Of a stretch of 64,000 bases of DNA, positions 12,057-34,333 are shown in pieces (the stretch's first letter is position 1; every line of letters begins with the position of its first letter). Source of the DNA: a virus; IMG/VR virus record IMGVR_UViG_3300016667_000367, positions 1 to 64,000 of that record; one strand, 5' to 3'. The notes beneath the pieces were generated by a model. It was not told the origin of the DNA, made no database searches, and worked only from the letters and a program-made list of their open reading frames with translations. A program made the position numbers and the translations under genes.

Positions 12057-12651
12057 ACAATCGCCTATTTTTCTAAGCGATTCTCAGAGAATCCTGAGCT
12101 GGTCTCAGGCCAGCGCTTATGCGCCGGGTTTGTGTTGGTGAAAATCAAGTCTTTAGATTTTTAACGATCCACCCCGTACTAGGGGCGATACCCTAGGGGC
12201 TGGGGCTTGCTGCTGTTCGCTGCTGCCTTGGACTCAATTATGCACTAGTTCGATGCCTTGTCTCGGTTTCTCTTAACTATTTTGATTGAAATTTACTATC
12301 GATGCCATAGGTTTTCCCTATCTGTTGGAGCGTCGATTTATACATATGACGCGCCCGCGATATAGCATAAAAAGAAAAACCTAGTAAATCGAAGGGTTAT
12401 TATATAAACCTAAGTCTAAACGAGAATCATTCTCATTTAGCTTTTCTGCAATCCTCCATATCAACCTCTTTACTGAAAACCACCATCAGCAATAAACGCT
12501 ACCTTGAAAAACTCCGAGGGGTCGTGAGTTTTTTAAGAAATTTTAACTTCAACCCCTAGCGGATTTTTGATTTCAATTTGGATTTCCATATTCAGGAAAT
12601 TTCAAATGCTCATGAGTTTTTGAAGATGAAAATTAAATGAGAAAAATAAAA

Positions 12652-26445: not shown

Positions 26446-26645
26446 AAAAATCTAAAGCAAGTACTGAAGAGAAGTTCCTTGAGTGGTTCAATGAAGTAGA
26501 AGGATTTGGTTTACGTAGTGAAAGGTTTTATACTTCACTTGATGAATTTAGAACAAGAGAAGGCCAGGCAGCTAGTATGATGTTGTGGTTGAAAGCTGCT
26601 TACGAGCAGGGTTTTAATGATGCTATTAATCAAAAGGATGAATAA
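26442..26645 (+). CDS. hypothetical protein (67 aa); a decayed copy lies at about 25745..25835
   Basis: ORF track. Confidence 0.45.
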   Translation: MKKSKASTEEKFLEWFNEVEGFGLRSERFYTSLDEFRTREGQAASMMLWLKAAYEQGFNDAINQKDE

Positions 26646-27571
26646 TGATTCCAAATAATTTCAAGCCAATGCTAGCTATCAACCAAGATAAAGTCAGCAC
26701 TCAACCTAGCACTAGGTATTGCAGTCAGAAGTTGGATGGCGTGCGTGTACTGTTCTTCGGTGGTGTTGCTTACAGCAGAAGTCTTAAGCCTTTGCCTAAC
26801 AAGCTACTGCAGAAGCTAGCTCAGGATAACGCAGAGATCCTTGAAAGTTGCGATGGTGAAGTTATTGCTGGCCCTAGGATTACAGCAGAGGGTGTTCTTC
26901 AAAGGACCACTAGCTTCTGTATGTCAGCGGATAGTACTGATGAATTTAATGTATATCTGTTTGATAAGTACATTCCTGATACTTACTGGTATAAAAGGTT
27001 TAGTGAATTACTTGATATTGAGAAATACTTGCCGGATCGTGTAAAAGTTCTTCAGCATTTCTTTGTTCCTGAAAAATACTCAGTACCTCCAGTTTCAGCA
27101 AGTTTGGTTAATCTTGAGGAATTTGAGAAGGATGTACTTGAGTCAGGTGGTGAAGGCGTAATGGTTCGTGATGCATTTGGTTTCTACAAATGCGGTAGGT
27201 CAGGTAAAAGGACTCCTGAGCTTCAGAAGTACAAACGATTTGACGACATGGAGTTTGAGGTAGTAGGATACCAGCAGTTTGAGAGCAACCAGAACGAAGC
27301 AGAGAAGAACGAACTAGGGTATACTAAGCGCAGTACAAGCAAGGAAGGTAAGGTGCTTGTTGAGCAGCTAGGAAGCCTTGTGTGCAAGCTACCTGACGGC
27401 AGGACTTTCAACGTAGGATCAGGATTTACCTTGCAGCAACGCAAGGAACTCTGGGAGACTAAGGATGAACTTTGTGGTAGACTAGCTAAGGTGCAGTACT
27501 TTGGATTTAGTCCTGATGGTGTACCATTGCTTCCTGTGTTCTTGGATTTTCGTAGTGAAATGGATATATAA
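26645..27571 (+). CDS. ATP-dependent DNA ligase
   Basis: adenylation motif I QKLDGVR (KxDG). Confidence 0.7.
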   Translation: MIPNNFKPMLAINQDKVSTQPSTRYCSQKLDGVRVLFFGGVAYSRSLKPLPNKLLQKLAQDNAEILESCDGEVIAGPRITAEGVLQRTTSFCMSADSTDEFNVYLFDKYIPDTYWYKRFSELLDIEKYLPDRVKVLQHFFVPEKYSVPPVSASLVNLEEFEKDVLESGGEGVMVRDAFGFYKCGRSGKRTPELQKYKRFDDMEFEVVGYQQFESNQNEAEKNELGYTKRSTSKEGKVLVEQLGSLVCKLPDGRTFNVGSGFTLQQRKELWETKDELCGRLAKVQYFGFSPDGVPLLPVFLDFRSEMDI

Positions 27572-27793: not shown

Positions 27794-28849
27794 ATGCGTA
27801 AACTTGCAAGCATTCGGCGTATCTCTGAAGTCAAAGCAATCGAAGGTGCTGATAAAATTGAGGCATACCGCGTAGACGGTTGGTGGGTTGTTGATAAGGT
27901 AGGGAAGTACAAAGTAAACGATGCTGTAGTTTATTTTGAGGTTGATAGCTTTATACCTAACTACCTAGCTGCATTCCTATCTAAAGGCAAGGAACCTTCT
28001 GAATACGAAGGAATACAAGGTGAGCGTTTACGTACAATTCGGCTTCGTAAGCAAATTAGCCAAGGGCTTATCATGCATCCTTCTGAGATTCCTGACTTTA
28101 TTCACGTTTACTATAACGCTTCAGATCGGCATGCTTTGCGGAAGTACACCTACGATGATGTCTATGAGGAGTACGCAGAGGGTGATGATTTAAGTGAATC
28201 ACTTGGTATTATTAAGTGGGAACCTAAGCTGCCCGCTCAACTAGCTGGTCAAGTACGTGGAGTATTCCCTAGTAAAATCCCTAAGACAGATCAGGAGCGA
28301 GTACAGAACATTGACATAGAGCAGTATCATGGGGAAACCTATGAGGTCACTGAGAAGCTACATGGAAGTTCTTGCACGTTCTACCTTGACAAGGATGGTG
28401 ACTTTCATGTATGCTCTCGGAACTACGATCTTAAGTATGACGAAAGCAATGCTTACTGGAAGGCTGCAATCAAGTACAATGCAGAGGTAGAGATGAAAAG
28501 ACTTGGCTTGTACGGTTATGCAATCCAAGGTGAACTCTGCGGTGAAGGTATCAACGGAAACAACTACAAGCTAGGTCTGGACTTCTTTGTCTTTGATATC
28601 TACATCGTAGGTGTAGGATACTTGATGCCTTATCGCAGGCAGCAACTAACAGAAGAACTTGGCTTGAAGCACGTACCTGTAGTTGATAGCGAGTATTTGC
28701 TGTATGATACAAAGGATGCGTTACTAGCTAAGGCTGATGGCAAGTCAGTACTGGCGGGTTGCAAGAGGGAGGGATTTGTGTTTAAATCTCATGAGTCAGA
28801 CAGGACTTTTAAGGTTGTGTCAAATGATTGGTTGTTGAAGTATGAGTAA
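27794..28849 (+). CDS. RNA ligase, Rnl2 family
   Basis: motif I TEKLHGSS (KxHGs) and YAIQGELCGEGINGNNY nucleotidyltransferase motifs resemble T4 Rnl2. Confidence 0.6.
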   Translation: MRKLASIRRISEVKAIEGADKIEAYRVDGWWVVDKVGKYKVNDAVVYFEVDSFIPNYLAAFLSKGKEPSEYEGIQGERLRTIRLRKQISQGLIMHPSEIPDFIHVYYNASDRHALRKYTYDDVYEEYAEGDDLSESLGIIKWEPKLPAQLAGQVRGVFPSKIPKTDQERVQNIDIEQYHGETYEVTEKLHGSSCTFYLDKDGDFHVCSRNYDLKYDESNAYWKAAIKYNAEVEMKRLGLYGYAIQGELCGEGINGNNYKLGLDFFVFDIYIVGVGYLMPYRRQQLTEELGLKHVPVVDSEYLLYDTKDALLAKADGKSVLAGCKREGFVFKSHESDRTFKVVSNDWLLKYE

Positions 28850-28872
28850 TTAAGTAATTCCAAGGAGTGCAT

Positions 28873-28977
28873 TTGAGTAAGTTTATTAAACATACCTCAT
28901 GCACTTCATGCGGTAGCAAGGATAACTTTGCACTGCTTCCTGTGTTTCTTGCGTTCAGATATGAAAGAGATATGTGA
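28873..28977 (+). CDS. short TTG-start ORF encoding a zinc-ribbon fragment (HTSCTSCGSKDNFALLP) like the N-terminal zinc-binding domain of T7 gp4
   Basis: hand-translated; -1 frame relative to the next ORF. Confidence 0.25.
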   Translation: MSKFIKHTSCTSCGSKDNFALLPVFLAFRYERDM

Positions 28978-29138
28978 GTAAAAACCTAGAAGATGTATTC
29001 GTTTGGCCTGACGGTAGCTGGTGCTATAGGTGTGAAATTCATGAGTACAGGTGGATCTCAGATGATTATTCTGTGGTGGAATACCGTAGTGAAGAGTACA
29101 AAGAATTTTTCATGAAGAAGTTGAAAGGAAATCAGTAA
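28974..29138 (+). CDS. 54-aa ORF (GTG start) encoding the second half of a gp4-like zinc ribbon (PDGSWCYRCEIHEYRW); in-frame with the primase-helicase, separated only by TAA
   Basis: 29139-28974=165 nt, so same frame; read directly. Confidence 0.4.
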   Translation: MSKNLEDVFVWPDGSWCYRCEIHEYRWISDDYSVVEYRSEEYKEFFMKKLKGNQ

Positions 29139-30806
29139 ATGGGTTACTTCAAAGCAGGTAAGAAATCTCTAAACAACGAGGAAAACGAATTCATGTTTGA
29201 AACTAAAGAAACTATCGAAGAAGTTCAAAAATACGGCTTCTACGATGCGGTAGATCGTAAGATTAGTAAAGAAACCTGCAAGCGATTTGGAGTACGCGCT
29301 ACTGTATCTGAAAAAGACGGCAGCACAGTAACTGCTTTCTACTTCCCTTCATACAACCAGAAGGGTAAGTTAGTAGGCTTCATGAAGCAGGATATTACAA
29401 AATCAAAAGAAGAAAAAGGTCATTGGACCGCTGTTGGTTCTGTTACTGTAAGTAACAAGCTATTCGGCCAAGAGATTGCTGAATGTATTAACCGCAAGCA
29501 CAATTCTCTAGTTATTACAGAAGGCTTTTGGGATACTATGTCTGTGTACCAAGCACAGGTTCAAAGTGTCAAAGGCACAAAGTACGAGGGGATGGAGCCA
29601 TTTGTTGTAAGCATCAATCTCGGTACAGCAAACGCTGTTGAGAATATGCTTCATAACGAAGAGTTTGTACGATCTTACGATTCTTGGACCTTGTTTCTGG
29701 ACGATGATTATTGCACACCAGCAGAAACCAAGAAAGGTATCATGAAGGGGCACGAAGCACGAGAAGCTATTGCTAGTGCTTTTGTTGGCAGTGGTATTAG
29801 TTTGATGACTGTAAGCCCTGATGATGGATTTAAAGATGCATCTGATTATATGCAAGCTGGACGTTCAGATGATCTAGCAAAGTTGGTTCAGTTTGGTAAG
29901 CGACCGTATTCTGCTGAGAAGATTGTTAAAGCAAGGGAGATTAGTCTTGAGGAATTACTTGAGCCACGACCAGAAGGTATTTATGTGGATTCATTTCCTA
30001 AGCTGATGGATAAGATTCACGGATTCCGTACATCTGAGTTAGTTCTGCTTACATCGCCTTCAAACACTGGTAAATCAACTGTTTTGTCTTTGTTTGCTAA
30101 TGCGTTTGTTGACGCTGGTGAAAAGATCGGTATGATTTATCTTGAAGAGACAAATAAGGAAACAATGCAACGACTAGTGGCATCTAAACTTAAAGTAAAC
30201 TATCTAAAGTTTAAAGATAAACCGCTAGAACTTGCTACTATGGAAGAAATTCAAGAAGCATATGATGACATTGTAAATAATGATAAGTTAGTAATGCTTT
30301 CTCATTTCGGATCGCTGCCTGTTTCAGAACTTATGAACAAGATCAAGCATATGCATTTGGTTGAAGGATGCAAGTACATCATGTTGGATCACTTATCAAT
30401 GGTTATTTCTGGTCTTGAGACTGATAATGAACGAAAACAACTGGATATTGTTATGACTGAGCTTGCGGCATTTTGCGCAGCAAATCAAGTTTGCGTGATC
30501 GCAGTGTCACACATCAATCGCACTAACGCAAACCAGTTTGTAGCACCGAAAGGCAAAGAAAACGAACCTTATTGGGTACAAGTCACAAAGGAGTCAATGC
30601 GAGGCAGTTCCAGTTTGGAACAGCTTAGTTTCATTATCCTTGGTCTTGAACCGCAAATCATGCCTGATCGTAGTCGCGGGAATGTTCGTCTGACTGTTCT
30701 TAAAAATCGCCCTTGGGGTTATCTTGGTGTATGCGATGAATTTAAGATTGATGATAATACTTGGCAAGTTGTCCTAGCAGAGGAAGAAGCTATTGATGCT
30801 TTCTGA
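29139..30806 (+). CDS. primase-helicase (T7 gp4-like: TOPRIM primase plus DnaB-type helicase)
   Basis: TOPRIM ITEGFWD; Walker A SPSNTGKST; Walker B IMLDHLS. Confidence 0.8.
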   Translation: MGYFKAGKKSLNNEENEFMFETKETIEEVQKYGFYDAVDRKISKETCKRFGVRATVSEKDGSTVTAFYFPSYNQKGKLVGFMKQDITKSKEEKGHWTAVGSVTVSNKLFGQEIAECINRKHNSLVITEGFWDTMSVYQAQVQSVKGTKYEGMEPFVVSINLGTANAVENMLHNEEFVRSYDSWTLFLDDDYCTPAETKKGIMKGHEAREAIASAFVGSGISLMTVSPDDGFKDASDYMQAGRSDDLAKLVQFGKRPYSAEKIVKAREISLEELLEPRPEGIYVDSFPKLMDKIHGFRTSELVLLTSPSNTGKSTVLSLFANAFVDAGEKIGMIYLEETNKETMQRLVASKLKVNYLKFKDKPLELATMEEIQEAYDDIVNNDKLVMLSHFGSLPVSELMNKIKHMHLVEGCKYIMLDHLSMVISGLETDNERKQLDIVMTELAAFCAANQVCVIAVSHINRTNANQFVAPKGKENEPYWVQVTKESMRGSSSLEQLSFIILGLEPQIMPDRSRGNVRLTVLKNRPWGYLGVCDEFKIDDNTWQVVLAEEEAIDAF

Positions 30807-30885: not shown

Positions 30886-32181
30886 ATGTTTACTGAAGGT
30901 TTTATTGGTAAAAATAAGCAAGGACTTACATATGAAGTACTTGATGCAAAGAAATCAAAACAAATTAGGATTCGTTTTGAAGACGGAGTAGAACTAGTAA
31001 CAACAAAACGTTATCTAAGTAACGGACTCCCGCTGCATCCTACAAAATTCAAGATGCTTCCGGGAGACATTCATAAAGACCGAGATTCTGTTGAATTTGA
31101 GCTAATTGAAAAAATAGGCGGAGGGACTTGGAAGATTAGATACTTGAAAGATGGAGTCGAATGCACAAGGGAAACCTCAACAATAAAAGAATGCGGAGGC
31201 AGGCATCCTATTGATTCCGTTCCTGCTGTTGGTGATGTCTATGCAGTTAATTCCGGACTTGTAAAAATTATTGAGTATAAATCAGCGACTGATGTAACAG
31301 TTGAATTTGAAGATGGCTCTGTTGTGAAAACAACTGCAAGCTGCTTAAGGCACAAAAATGTTGGTCATCCGACTTCAGGGATAAAAGTAGGTCAAAAAAG
31401 AACAACAAATAGTGGTTGGGAGTACACCATAGAGAAATATGTTTCTCCTACAGAAGTTTATGTTCGTATGCAGGATGGCTCTATTGAGAAAATTTCTGCG
31501 AGGGATGCAAAAACAGGAGGTTTTAAACCATGTAATCAACCGTCTGTTGCTGGTGTTGGATTTATTGGGCAAGGTAGGTTCACTAATTTGCTTAAGAAAG
31601 ATGGAGAAAAAGCGCCAGAAGAAATTTATAGTTATTGGCACAGAATGATTGGCAGGTGTTACAACCCTGCAGAAATTGTTAAAAATTCTGGAAGAAGATA
31701 TATTTTCGTAAATATATACAAAGACTGGTTCAACTTTCAAAACTTTGCTGAATGGGCTTTGTCTCAACCTAACTGGAACATGCGTCATGATCTAGACAAA
31801 GACCTTTTAGGTAATGGTACAGAGTATTCCCCTGAAAATTGTACATTTCTGCCATCAGAGATAAACGTATTTCTTGCTGAAAACTGGTCAAAGACAACAC
31901 ACGATCTACCTATTGGAGTTCAGTACATTAAACCAGCAACTGTAGGATCAAAAGAAGGGTATGTAGCAAGGTGTCACACAGATAATGGCAGAGAATATCT
32001 TGGGTATTTTGATGATCCAATGGATGCACATATTGCCTACAAAAATACAAAGGAAGCATATGCAAAAGTGCTTGCTGAAAAGTTTAAAGATGTTATAACA
32101 GAAAAAGCTTACAAGGCTTTAATTAATTTTAGACTGACAAAAACTTATTCTGATCCTCCGCACGTTTGTGGCCAGAGCTAA
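30886..32181 (+). CDS. free-standing homing endonuclease of the HNH-AP2 type, with four N-terminal about-45-aa repeat modules and a C-terminal AP2 domain
   Basis: YSYWHRMIGRCYN...WFNFQNFAEW...LDKDLLGNGTEYSPENCTF; AP2-like LPIGVQYIKP...YLGYFDDPMDAHIAY; paralog of 7726..8514. Confidence 0.6.
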   Translation: MFTEGFIGKNKQGLTYEVLDAKKSKQIRIRFEDGVELVTTKRYLSNGLPLHPTKFKMLPGDIHKDRDSVEFELIEKIGGGTWKIRYLKDGVECTRETSTIKECGGRHPIDSVPAVGDVYAVNSGLVKIIEYKSATDVTVEFEDGSVVKTTASCLRHKNVGHPTSGIKVGQKRTTNSGWEYTIEKYVSPTEVYVRMQDGSIEKISARDAKTGGFKPCNQPSVAGVGFIGQGRFTNLLKKDGEKAPEEIYSYWHRMIGRCYNPAEIVKNSGRRYIFVNIYKDWFNFQNFAEWALSQPNWNMRHDLDKDLLGNGTEYSPENCTFLPSEINVFLAENWSKTTHDLPIGVQYIKPATVGSKEGYVARCHTDNGREYLGYFDDPMDAHIAYKNTKEAYAKVLAEKFKDVITEKAYKALINFRLTKTYSDPPHVCGQS

Positions 32182-32251
32182 AACCAACAGCCAGCCTTGC
32201 GCTGGCTTTTCTTTTTGTGCTATACTTCACTTAAAGTAAGAAAGGAAAACC

Positions 32252-34333
32252 ATGACGCAAGGATACTGCTTTGACATTGAGTGCGATAACTTCTACCTGC
32301 AAAGCAAGCAAGTATGGGTTGTCTCATTGATGTCTCTTGATAAGAAGAGAAAGCTAGACATCTTCCCGTACAAGGAAGGTAAGGAAGCATCCTACAAAAA
32401 GTTCATGGAGTGGCACAACTCATTCGGTGAAGAACCAATGGTTGTATCCTTCAACGGTATAGGTTTTGATCACTGGATTTTATGGAAGCACCTTGGTATT
32501 TCTTTCCATGTAGGTAAGAAAGGTAAGGACTGGATTGATATGCAACCATGTCGTATCGTTGATCTGTTTATCTTGTCTCAGTTTGTAGAACCAGATCGTC
32601 CAAGGCATAGTCTTGCTTCCTACGGTGAAGAACTAGGTAATGCAAAGATCGACTTTCACGACTTCTCGCAGTTCTCTGAAGAAATGCTTACGTATTGCCA
32701 GCAGGACGTTAATGTAACCGTAGACACTTATCGAAATCTTGCAGGAAAGCTGAATAAGATGTACGTAGGTTTCTATGGTAATGAATATAACGGTCAGCAC
32801 AAAGAGCCTTTCAAGGCTATCCAGAAGGATTACTATCTATATGCAGCGCAGGCTTACACCGGGATAAAGTTCAACCAAGAAGCAGCTAAGAAGCTAGTAG
32901 TTGAGATTGATAAAGAGATGCTTGATATTGAAGCCGAGGTTCTTCCACAGCTCCCCCCAAGAAAACTAAAAGAGGGTGAGAAGAAATTCTATACAATTCC
33001 TTCAAAGCCTTTTAAGAAGTCAGGGGAGTTAAGCACTACGATGCTTAACTGGATTGCTAAACACAATGCAGAAATCAAGGATCGTTCTTTTATTGCTTAT
33101 GGTAAAGAATACAAAATCGAGGCTAACAAGTTGCTTGACATTGAACTTCCTATGGAAATTAAAGATGGAGATGACATCAAGAGCTGGCTGATTTCTCGTG
33201 GATGGCGACCAAGTTTTTGGAACTTTAAACGAGATCCTAATACTGGAAAACCAATGCGTGACGATAAGGGTGAAGTTATTACAACGACACCAAAGTTGCA
33301 AGAGATGGGTAAGATTTGCCCAAATCTGTTGCTTATTGACGGTGAACTTCCAAAAAAGATCGTTAGGTTCTTGTCTCTACGTAACAGGCGATCTGTTGTT
33401 TCTGGGTGGCTTGATCATTGGAGGCTTGCCTTTGATGGCAGGCTTCCTGCAGAGATTACAGGATATACTCCAACTTTTCGCGTAAAGCATTCTTGTATTG
33501 TCAATCTACCGAAAGCATCTCCAGAAGTTATCAAGGGTTATGAGGTGCGGTCATTGTTTGTTAGTGACGATGATATGAAATACGTTTCTGCTGATGCTGC
33601 TGCTCTTGAAAATAGAACAGTTGCTGACTACACGTATGATTTCGACAACGGTGCTTTCGCTGACCTTGTGCTTAACGGGGATTCTCATTCGTTCAATGCT
33701 AAGATTTTCTTCCCAGAACAGACAAAGGATTTCGATCCAAGTTGTAAGGATTTTAATAAAGATGATCCAATGTTTAAGCCATATAGAAACAAAGCAAAGA
33801 CTGGTGCCTACAGCCTAGCGTATGGTGCTTCTGTTAAGAAGTTCACAAAGTCATTGGGTTTATCGGATGAAGAAGGTGCAAGGGCATACGAAGGTTACTG
33901 GGATGCTAATAAAGGTCTTAAGTTGTTCAAGGAGCATATCGAGAAAGAGTGGCAAACAAAAGGATCTAAGAAATACATCATGGCAAAAGATGGTAAGTTG
34001 TTGACTGCAAGATCAAAGCACTTGCTTGTAAACTTATCAGGGCAAAGCCTTGGTGCTACTGTCATCACCTACGCAGCCTGTCTTCTTGACAACAAGTTAG
34101 GTTGGATGCAGATTGACGACCTTGGACGACCATACTACACTTACAAGGGTTTCAAGGTTCAGCGGCTTGCTGCCTTCCATGATCAGATTGATATGCAGAC
34201 AGAACCAGAGGTTGCTGAAGAGGTTGGTAAATCAATCGTTGATGCAATAAAGAAAGCTGGTACACTTCTTGGTATCAAGGTACCACTTGACGGTGAGTAC
34301 AAGGTAGGTGATAACGCAGCAGAGATTCACTAA
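32252..34333 (+). CDS. DNA polymerase, family A (T7 gp5-like) with 3'-5' exonuclease
   Basis: exo motif CFDIECDNF; pol motif B RNKAKTGAYSLAYGAS; motif C HDQIDM. Confidence 0.8.
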   Translation: MTQGYCFDIECDNFYLQSKQVWVVSLMSLDKKRKLDIFPYKEGKEASYKKFMEWHNSFGEEPMVVSFNGIGFDHWILWKHLGISFHVGKKGKDWIDMQPCRIVDLFILSQFVEPDRPRHSLASYGEELGNAKIDFHDFSQFSEEMLTYCQQDVNVTVDTYRNLAGKLNKMYVGFYGNEYNGQHKEPFKAIQKDYYLYAAQAYTGIKFNQEAAKKLVVEIDKEMLDIEAEVLPQLPPRKLKEGEKKFYTIPSKPFKKSGELSTTMLNWIAKHNAEIKDRSFIAYGKEYKIEANKLLDIELPMEIKDGDDIKSWLISRGWRPSFWNFKRDPNTGKPMRDDKGEVITTTPKLQEMGKICPNLLLIDGELPKKIVRFLSLRNRRSVVSGWLDHWRLAFDGRLPAEITGYTPTFRVKHSCIVNLPKASPEVIKGYEVRSLFVSDDDMKYVSADAAALENRTVADYTYDFDNGAFADLVLNGDSHSFNAKIFFPEQTKDFDPSCKDFNKDDPMFKPYRNKAKTGAYSLAYGASVKKFTKSLGLSDEEGARAYEGYWDANKGLKLFKEHIEKEWQTKGSKKYIMAKDGKLLTARSKHLLVNLSGQSLGATVITYAACLLDNKLGWMQIDDLGRPYYTYKGFKVQRLAAFHDQIDMQTEPEVAEEVGKSIVDAIKKAGTLLGIKVPLDGEYKVGDNAAEIH

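Follow-up and report, generated by a model that had tools for sequence, protein, structure and literature searches.

A truncated zinc-binding-domain gene start and an unrelated small gene upstream of a phage primase-helicase: a probable scar of recombination

Gene 4 of phage T7 encodes two proteins in a single open reading frame (ORF): gp4A, which carries the zinc-binding domain (ZBD) of gp4-type primases, and gp4B, which starts at the internal Met64 and has no ZBD. Phage genes can also be recoded, as exemplified by bypassing in T4 gene 60, −1 frameshifts, and UGA read-through in Qbeta. Here, we analyze a locus in a 64,000-nucleotide (nt) stretch of viral DNA, positions 1 to 64,000 of IMG/VR record IMGVR_UViG_3300016667_000367 (hereafter, the window), at which two short ORFs, ORF1 and ORF2, precede a primase-helicase gene, ORF3 (Table 1). 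The zinc-motif ORFs, their frames, their Cys motifs, and a TAA are all present as described in an earlier sequence-only reading, which took ORF1 and ORF2 for the two halves of the ZBD of ORF3. We consider it quite probable that 28850-29138 is not a ZBD that was broken or recoded but a recombination scar, in which the stub of a ZBD-type gene and an unrelated small gene stand before a primase-helicase gene that has no ZBD.

The likeness to T7 gp4 is divided between two ORFs. ORF3 aligns over the TOPRIM and DnaB-like helicase domains and begins about where gp4B begins in the T7 annotation, and the first 21 residues of ORF1 fit the N-terminal pattern F..H..C..CGS.D of gp4A. Whereas gp4A and gp4B arise from two in-frame starts of one ORF, the ZBD-like start in the window belongs to another frame and another lineage, has no second knuckle, and is followed by a complete gene and a stop before ORF3. 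The sequence-only reading was correct that ORF2 lies in frame with the primase-helicase of 555 amino acids (aa), separated from it only by the TAA at 29136-29138 (28974 and 29139 are both 0 mod 3); ORF1 lies in another frame, and its TGA overlaps the GTG of ORF2 as GTGA. Closer likenesses were found in two IMG/VR contigs, 3300044209_000006 (L106) and 3300043399_000215 (L122), which share with the window a Shine-Dalgarno sequence (SD), a short spacer, a TTG start, and the first 21 codons of a primase-helicase gene; in L106, this gene also occupies the same slot. The difference is that the L106 ORF runs for 589 aa through a second knuckle (GHCFGC), a TOPRIM domain, and a helicase, while the homology in the window ends at codon 21. 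For L122, 345 aa of the ORF can be read before its locus ends.

ORF1 opens with the signature F-x-x-H-x-x-C-x-x-C-G-S-x-D (KFIKHTSCTSCGSKDN). Scored against a hidden Markov model (HMM) of 12 true ZBDs, it reached 38 bits with an E-value of 1e-10, which is optimistic because the model was trained largely on sequences first found via ORF1, and it was the only significant match among 2449 six-frame segments of the window. A less circular test of its ancestry, in our judgment, is the count of the pattern HTxCxxCGSKDN, which occurs 78 times in 2.9 million IMG/VR viral contigs, each time (78/78) at the N-terminus of a long ORF; all 78 of these ORFs have a second zinc knuckle further on, as primases and primase-helicases do. 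When phages were searched with ORF1 by tblastn, the matches (best E 0.01) were mostly primase or primase-helicase N-termini, and ORF1-like N-termini are present in Alcaligenes phage QDWS535 (MKHTSCPNCGSRDNLAMYDDGSGHCFGC) and Curvibacter phage P26059A (NFIKHTSCDECGSSD). No candidates came from word-indexed searches of proteins in which ORF1 or the ZBD of the Alcaligenes phage served as query. Judged by these comparisons, ORF1 is a genuine homologue of the start of a ZBD gene. As a side observation on annotation, the primase/helicase coding sequence of Alcaligenes phage vB_Af_QDWS535 (L037; OK172329.1, 2219-2989) is annotated from 2267, omitting the first zinc knuckle, and the ORF really opens at GTG 2219.

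The closest matches to the stub are in L106 and L122 (LSRFVKHTSCEQCGSKDNFAL-YVDDDGYESGHCFGC). When the whole window was searched with the L106 primase-helicase by tblastn, residues 1-21 matched at 28873-28935 with 17/21 identical (81%; E 1.6e-6). This match is collinear with, and upstream of, a weak match to ORF3, which is only 22.5% identical to L106 residues 76-560, and the same search found no further fragments of an L106-type gene in the window. At the DNA level, 44/63 nt (70%) are identical over the 21 codons, vs 10/42 over the next 42 nt. The homology to the ZBD gene ends abruptly, with the breakpoint at 28935/28936, after which ORF1 continues for 13 codons of unrelated sequence and then reaches its TGA.

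The signature in ORF1 points to descent from a ZBD, not to a functional one. By the definition we used (Pfam PF08273, Zn_Ribbon_Prim), a ZBD is a single polypeptide stretch whose four Cys form two CxxC knuckles spaced by about 15-20 residues, and the corresponding C17, C20, C36, and C39 are invariant in 12/12 reference ZBDs. ORF1 has a single CxxC; the next one belongs to a different ORF in a different frame and would, on concatenation of the two, be ~39 residues away. PF08273 matched neither ORF1 nor ORF2 nor their straight concatenation at its gathering threshold of 23 bits. ORF1 is also not joined to the TOPRIM domain, since a frame change, a complete unrelated gene, and the TAA lie in between. 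A possible hidden second knuckle in frame 0 (LCTASCVSC, 28926-28961) was rejected, as adding it cut the ZBD score to 29-30 bits. A weak direct repeat of the CTSC codons links 28900-28914 and 28929-28943 (TGCACTTCATGCGGT and TGCACTGCTTCCTGT, 11/15 identical); its second copy (C-T-A-S-C, then V-S-C, in frame 0) resembles a Cys cluster, but probably by chance.

ORF2 belongs to another family. It matched phrog_5116 with an E-value of 5.7e-19, with residues 3-49 on profile positions 4-51 of 56, and its core FVWxDGSWCYRCE...SDDY can be read against the family consensus EDxxxWPDGxWCYRxE...SDDY. Homologues were found by tblastn in 488-526 phage records, mostly of T5-like phages at 49-51% identity, in which a 60-aa protein (MSIVKSVYTHPDDIFVWADGSWCYRCELWEMDYKSDDYGVIYV...) is encoded next to, and upstream of, a Sir2-like gene; others are found in Erwinia Ounavirinae, such as gp057 of Erwinia phage M7. 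ORF2 shares length class and core with these T5 and M7 proteins and differs from them in its position directly before a primase-helicase, as in one relative, L046. An exhaustive HMMER search of 1.8 billion representatives gave 275 clusters at E<=1e-3, mostly stand-alone proteins of 45-70 aa. The stand-alone size is 42-65 aa (median 53 aa), and ORF2 reaches the normal C-terminal length of the family. Five positions (W11, C17, S29, D30, and D31) are at least 90% conserved among 60 and 81 aligned members, and ORF2 has all five. The Cys equivalent to C20 is present in only 5/81 members (~6%), and 40/81 have a single Cys; therefore, the ORF2 family is not a zinc knuckle. ORF2 scored 5 bits against the ZBD HMM (E ~2), which is the noise level. 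Remote homology of the family to ZBDs was also rejected, with an hhalign probability of 1.2% against 12 genuine ZBDs, and the family profile found neither T7 primase nor any other primase in the PDB. An AlphaFold2 model of ORF2 (pLDDT 88) shows a compact strand-strand-helix-strand-helix arrangement, for which Foldseek found no significant neighbor in the PDB (best E 4.2). Thus, when both ORFs are aligned to gp4 ZBDs, the proposal that they are two halves of one domain holds for ORF1, which supplies the first knuckle and derives from a ZBD start, and fails for ORF2. Nor are the two a tandem duplication, as had been suggested from SKDNFALLPVF and SKNLEDVFVWP: BLASTP of ORF1 against ORF2 gave nothing at E<=100, and no DNA repeat links 28915-28947 to 28977-29009.

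From its family membership, ORF2 is a complete, independent accessory gene with the TAA as its ordinary stop. Genes of this family occur dispersed over early and replication regions in T5-like and Felix-O1-like phages, and their sites vary: T5-like phages have them beside Sir2, Erwinia phage M7 has one after the polymerase, and L046 has one before the primase-helicase. A functional linkage between these genes and primase-helicases was considered and is not supported, because the neighborhoods differ. An exact look-up gave no independent copy of ORF2: the sole 98% match (P0001) is the protein of the window itself, with a V for the M. Within the family, some members (P0003, P0023, and P0036) are tandem duplications with two WPDGxWC...SDDY units in 99-180 aa; the top match, P0002 (3500 aa), contains no stretch that matches and appears to be a false positive due to composition.

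ORF3 is complete by itself. It matched Pfam DnaB_C with 66.5 bits (3.2e-18; cut-off 27) and phrog_239 with an E-value of 2.3e-124 over profile positions 102-602, downstream of the ZBD region of that profile. Its residues 33-537 align to T7 gp4 residues 76-535, and T7 gp4 structures match at an E-value of 5e-28. The protein begins at about T7 gp4 residue 44, past the ZBD. Pfam Toprim matches are weak (E 0.03-0.14); the acidic motifs align as ITEG/VTEG, LDDD/FDMD, and FKDASD/CKDANE (ORF3/T7 gp4), and the clade without a ZBD appears to retain the TOPRIM motifs ITEG, LDDD, and FKDASD. The relatives of ORF3 come from Felix-O1-like and related phages: Pseudomonas phage M1 (74% identity), Pseudaeromonas phage KLEP7 (68%), Acinetobacter phages (~56%), ~40 metagenomic contigs (53-83%), and, more distantly, Mydovirus, Plateaulakevirus, and Vibrio phage PWH3a-P1 (37-41%). 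In more than 40 relatives (53-83% identity), the protein has no ZBD and opens with the same M(G/S)YFK as ORF3 (MGYFK). Wherever the 5′ end was readable, down to 37% identity, no CxxC-containing sequence was found upstream of the primase-helicase of a relative, and the ZBD HMM found no other ZBD-like segment in the six frames of the window. On this evidence, the ORF3 clade as a whole has no ZBD. Since the relatives all do without a ZBD and share the same start, the TAA is therefore the normal stop of ORF2. One metagenome scan and two IMG/VR scans found no primase-helicase more than 83% identical to ORF3, near-identical DNA was not found among cultured phages, and a literature search on Felix-O1-type primase-helicases without a ZBD found nothing. 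A separate observation concerns the GenBank entry of Pseudomonas phage vB_PsaM_M1 (L002; OP714164.2), in which ~130 nt of the 5′ part of the helicase gene (~98-300) are duplicated near the record end. The duplication brings in a stop (..caagacTAAagaaacactgg..), and it accounts for a match that begins at residue 38 and falls in two places in the record; it is likely a terminal-repeat or assembly artefact.

Comparison with relatives shows how the parts may have come together. In L022, whose primase-helicase is 81% identical, the RNA ligase stop lies 10 nt before the primase-helicase start; measured against this arrangement, the window therefore carries 289 nt of additional DNA at 28850-29138. 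In L046 (primase-helicase 71% identical), a 91-aa ORF2-family gene with a single Cys lies directly upstream of MGYFKAGK..., and its TAA is followed by 2 nt and then a TTG, so that its frame differs from that of the primase-helicase. Other relatives have no ORF2 at all. L106 is partly syntenic with the window and matches its gene order over the region examined (DNA ligase 40% identical, DNA polymerase 41%, several small ORFs 42-61%), and its slot between DNA ligase and DNA polymerase holds the ZBD-type primase-helicase. Both also share a terminator-like element before the polymerase gene that is identical at 35/37 nt. Of the contigs in which the polymerases and ligases are only 24-46% identical to those of the window, most have a ZBD-less primase-helicase at 64-83% identity. 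This excess conservation of the primase-helicase suggests horizontal spread at the level of the module or an unusually strong constraint.

Based on these comparisons, we propose that phages with alternative primase-helicase types in the same slot recombined. A ZBD-less primase-helicase would have arrived, probably with an upstream ORF2-family gene as in L046, and would have displaced or truncated the ZBD-type gene in the slot, leaving its first 21 codons. An HNH endonuclease gene lies just downstream of ORF3, and HNH genes recur at varying positions around the primase-helicase module in M1, KLEP7, L004, and L106, which makes an exchange promoted by the endonuclease plausible, though unproven; L022, L046, and KLEP7 have no HNH gene at this position, and their polymerase directly follows the primase-helicase. 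At present, three separate translation units would be expected, with ORF3 initiating on its own SD (AAAGGA, 29124-29129) and ATG after a 9-nt spacer. By translational coupling, the strong SD and start of the stub and its GTGA overlap may supply the weak GTG of ORF2 with ribosomes. Three parts of this model are inferred: which way the swap went, what the HNH endonuclease contributed, and the coupling.

Several points weigh against a scar of this kind. Besides the circularity of the ZBD model described above, no second stub and no sister genome with the same stub were found in 2.9 million viral contigs or in one metagenome scan. The intact SD and start and the 17/21 retained residues could mean that the stub is under selection for some function, and the primase-helicase could be so highly conserved through strong purifying selection and not through horizontal spread. 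Finally, M1, L020, and L021 have ZBD-less genes, yet their polymerases are 40-43% identical to that of the window; the polymerase comparison is therefore not proof that the window has an L106-type backbone.

The alternative that survives best, although we consider it unlikely, is that the stub and ORF2 were imported together from a third phage as a cassette of ~290 nt, which inserted between the RNA ligase and a resident ZBD-less primase-helicase without any displacement in situ. The uninterrupted junction of L022, the mobility of ORF2-family genes (with Sir2 in T5-like phages, with the polymerase in Erwinia phage M7, and in L046), and the pairing of window-like polymerases with ZBD-less genes in M1, L020, and L021 are all in keeping with such an import. 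However, it needs an unobserved donor with an ORF2-family gene 38 nt behind a truncated ZBD gene start, and the stub sits exactly in the slot of the ZBD-type gene of L106. L022 is also a poor model of the state before insertion, as its flanking genes are only 27-45% identical to those of the window.

That ORF1 and ORF2 are halves of the ZBD of ORF3, separated by a recent split or connected by frameshifting or bypassing followed by read-through of the TAA, we regard as highly improbable. ORF2 and ORF3 share a frame, and with an artificial join (...NFALLP + DGSWCYRC) the score against the ZBD HMM increases from 38 bits to 48 and a weak match to Pfam Zn_Ribbon_Prim appears (E 0.032, 15 bits). Nevertheless, 15 bits is below the 23-bit cut-off, and the invented junction deletes conserved residues of ORF2, including the nearly invariant W11, from a protein that is complete and of another family. 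A recent split is contradicted by lineage: the stub derives from a lineage only 22.5% identical to ORF3 and therefore was never the N-terminus of the ORF3 gene, whose clade has no ZBD. The superficial likeness to known phage recoding consists of two ORFs that can be joined into a motif, an in-frame stop, and a matching CCT at each of 28939 and 29007. We found no slippery heptamer (X_XXY_YYZ) in 28965-28977, and a frame-0 TGA at 28962 limits any shifting window to the 13 nt before the ORF1 stop. A bypass from CCT 28939 to CCT 29007 was rejected, as it would skip residues of ORF2 that are conserved across an independent family and the take-off codon is followed by GTG, not a stop. TAA read-through is not, to our knowledge, an established mechanism in phages, and it is unnecessary here: ORF3 has its own initiation signals, and the in-frame arrangement is not conserved, since the L046 gene pair is out of frame. 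As far as the sequence can tell, nothing supports recoding. Two features are coincidences: that ORF2 and ORF3 share a frame, for which the odds are 1 in 3, and the CYRC of ORF2, found in ~6% of its family. The sequence-only reading had itself proposed that the same locus in relatives could refute it, and L046 presents the same arrangement with a small ORF clearly unrelated to a ZBD.

We find a related scheme similarly hard to credit, in which ORF1 and ORF2 would be co-translated via the GTGA and assemble a four-Cys zinc site in trans, giving ORF3 its template recognition. If true, a gene stub would have recreated a ZBD together with an unrelated protein.

Sequencing or assembly errors (an indel near 28970 and a substitution at 29136) that broke an intact ZBD-primase-helicase gene are conceivable, as the window comes from a 75.9-kb JGI metagenome contig, the one that encodes P0001, but the repair would leave ~39 residues between the knuckles and then a complete phrog_5116 domain, an architecture seen in 0 of 78 ZBD-type genes and in none of the more than 40 ZBD-less relatives examined, and ZBD homology already ends abruptly at 28935, ~40 nt before the frame change; we give this reading almost no weight. 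Equally implausible is a purely coincidental likeness of ORF1, as a spurious ORF or an unrelated micro-gene, to a ZBD start: the similarity spans only 21 residues, short motifs can mislead (a phmmer search of the PDB hit tau repeats via CGSKDN), and ORF1 alone has no Pfam match, but against this stand the 17/21 residues, the same SD/TTG geometry, the 70% nt identity confined to 63 nt, the 12-residue motif, which in 78/78 cases is N-terminal in a long ORF that has a second knuckle, and a stub placed directly upstream of a primase-helicase in the slot of the L106 ZBD-type gene.

The features of the locus are collected in Table 1. A scan of 28500-29400 found no promoters or terminators near the ORFs above shuffle expectation.

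Table 1. Coordinates of features at and around the primase-helicase locus of the window
Feature	Position	Strand	Description	Basis
RNA ligase gene	27794..28849	+	Pfam RNA_ligase 1.6e-27 and PHA02142 OB-fold; left flank of the ~289-nt inserted interval	
Shine-Dalgarno AAGGAG for ORF1 start	28862..28867	+	Strong; 5 nt before TTG 28873	
ORF1	TTG 28873 (or GTG 28867) to TGA 28975-28977	+	Encodes ..KFIKHTSCTSCGSKDNFALLPVFLAFRYERDM	sequence
5′ stub of ZBD-type primase-helicase gene (probable)	28873..28935	+	TTG + 21 codons (LSKFIKHTSCTSCGSKDNFAL); first CxxC knuckle only	
Non-homologous ORF1 tail	28936..28977	+	LPVFLAFRYERDM then TGA; holds purine-rich stretch before ORF2	
ORF2	GTG 28974 to TAA 29136-29138	+	54 aa, encodes VSKNLEDVFVWPDGSWCYRCEIHEYRW...	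sequence
TAA	29136..29138	+	Ordinary ORF2 stop, abuts ORF3 ATG	
ORF3 primase-helicase	ATG 29139 to 30806	+	555 aa	sequence
HNH endonuclease gene	30886..32181	+	431 aa; phrog_953 E 2.9e-53; between primase-helicase and DNA polymerase	

Two further observations concern the genes around the module. Across loci L001-L054, for which the window gene at 29139-30806 was compared alongside those at 26645-27571, 27794-28849, and 32252-34333, amino acid identity was 53-83% for the primase-helicase vs 24-46% for the DNA polymerase, 30-43% for the DNA ligase, and 41-46% for the RNA ligase; the neighboring DNA polymerases of the relatives are apparently of two types. The terminator-like element is a hairpin (GCCAGCcttgcGCTGGC) with a T-run and then TATACT, which occurs once in the window, at 32190-32226 (+), just upstream of the polymerase ATG at 32252. 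Its copy in L106 lies at 12244-12279, and the adjoining coding regions have no detectable DNA similarity; a variant with 4 mismatches follows the primase-helicase stop in L004 (3904-3924).

The locus would thus exemplify the short gene stubs that modular exchange leaves behind in the replication regions of phages and that can resemble split or recoded genes, and it cautions against joining short Cys motifs across ORFs. The apparent retention of TOPRIM catalytic motifs in a large clade without a ZBD bears on how these enzymes choose priming sites. In related phages, a single slot can hold two very different primase-helicase types, one with and one without a ZBD, and the window probably preserves a physical trace of the contact between them.

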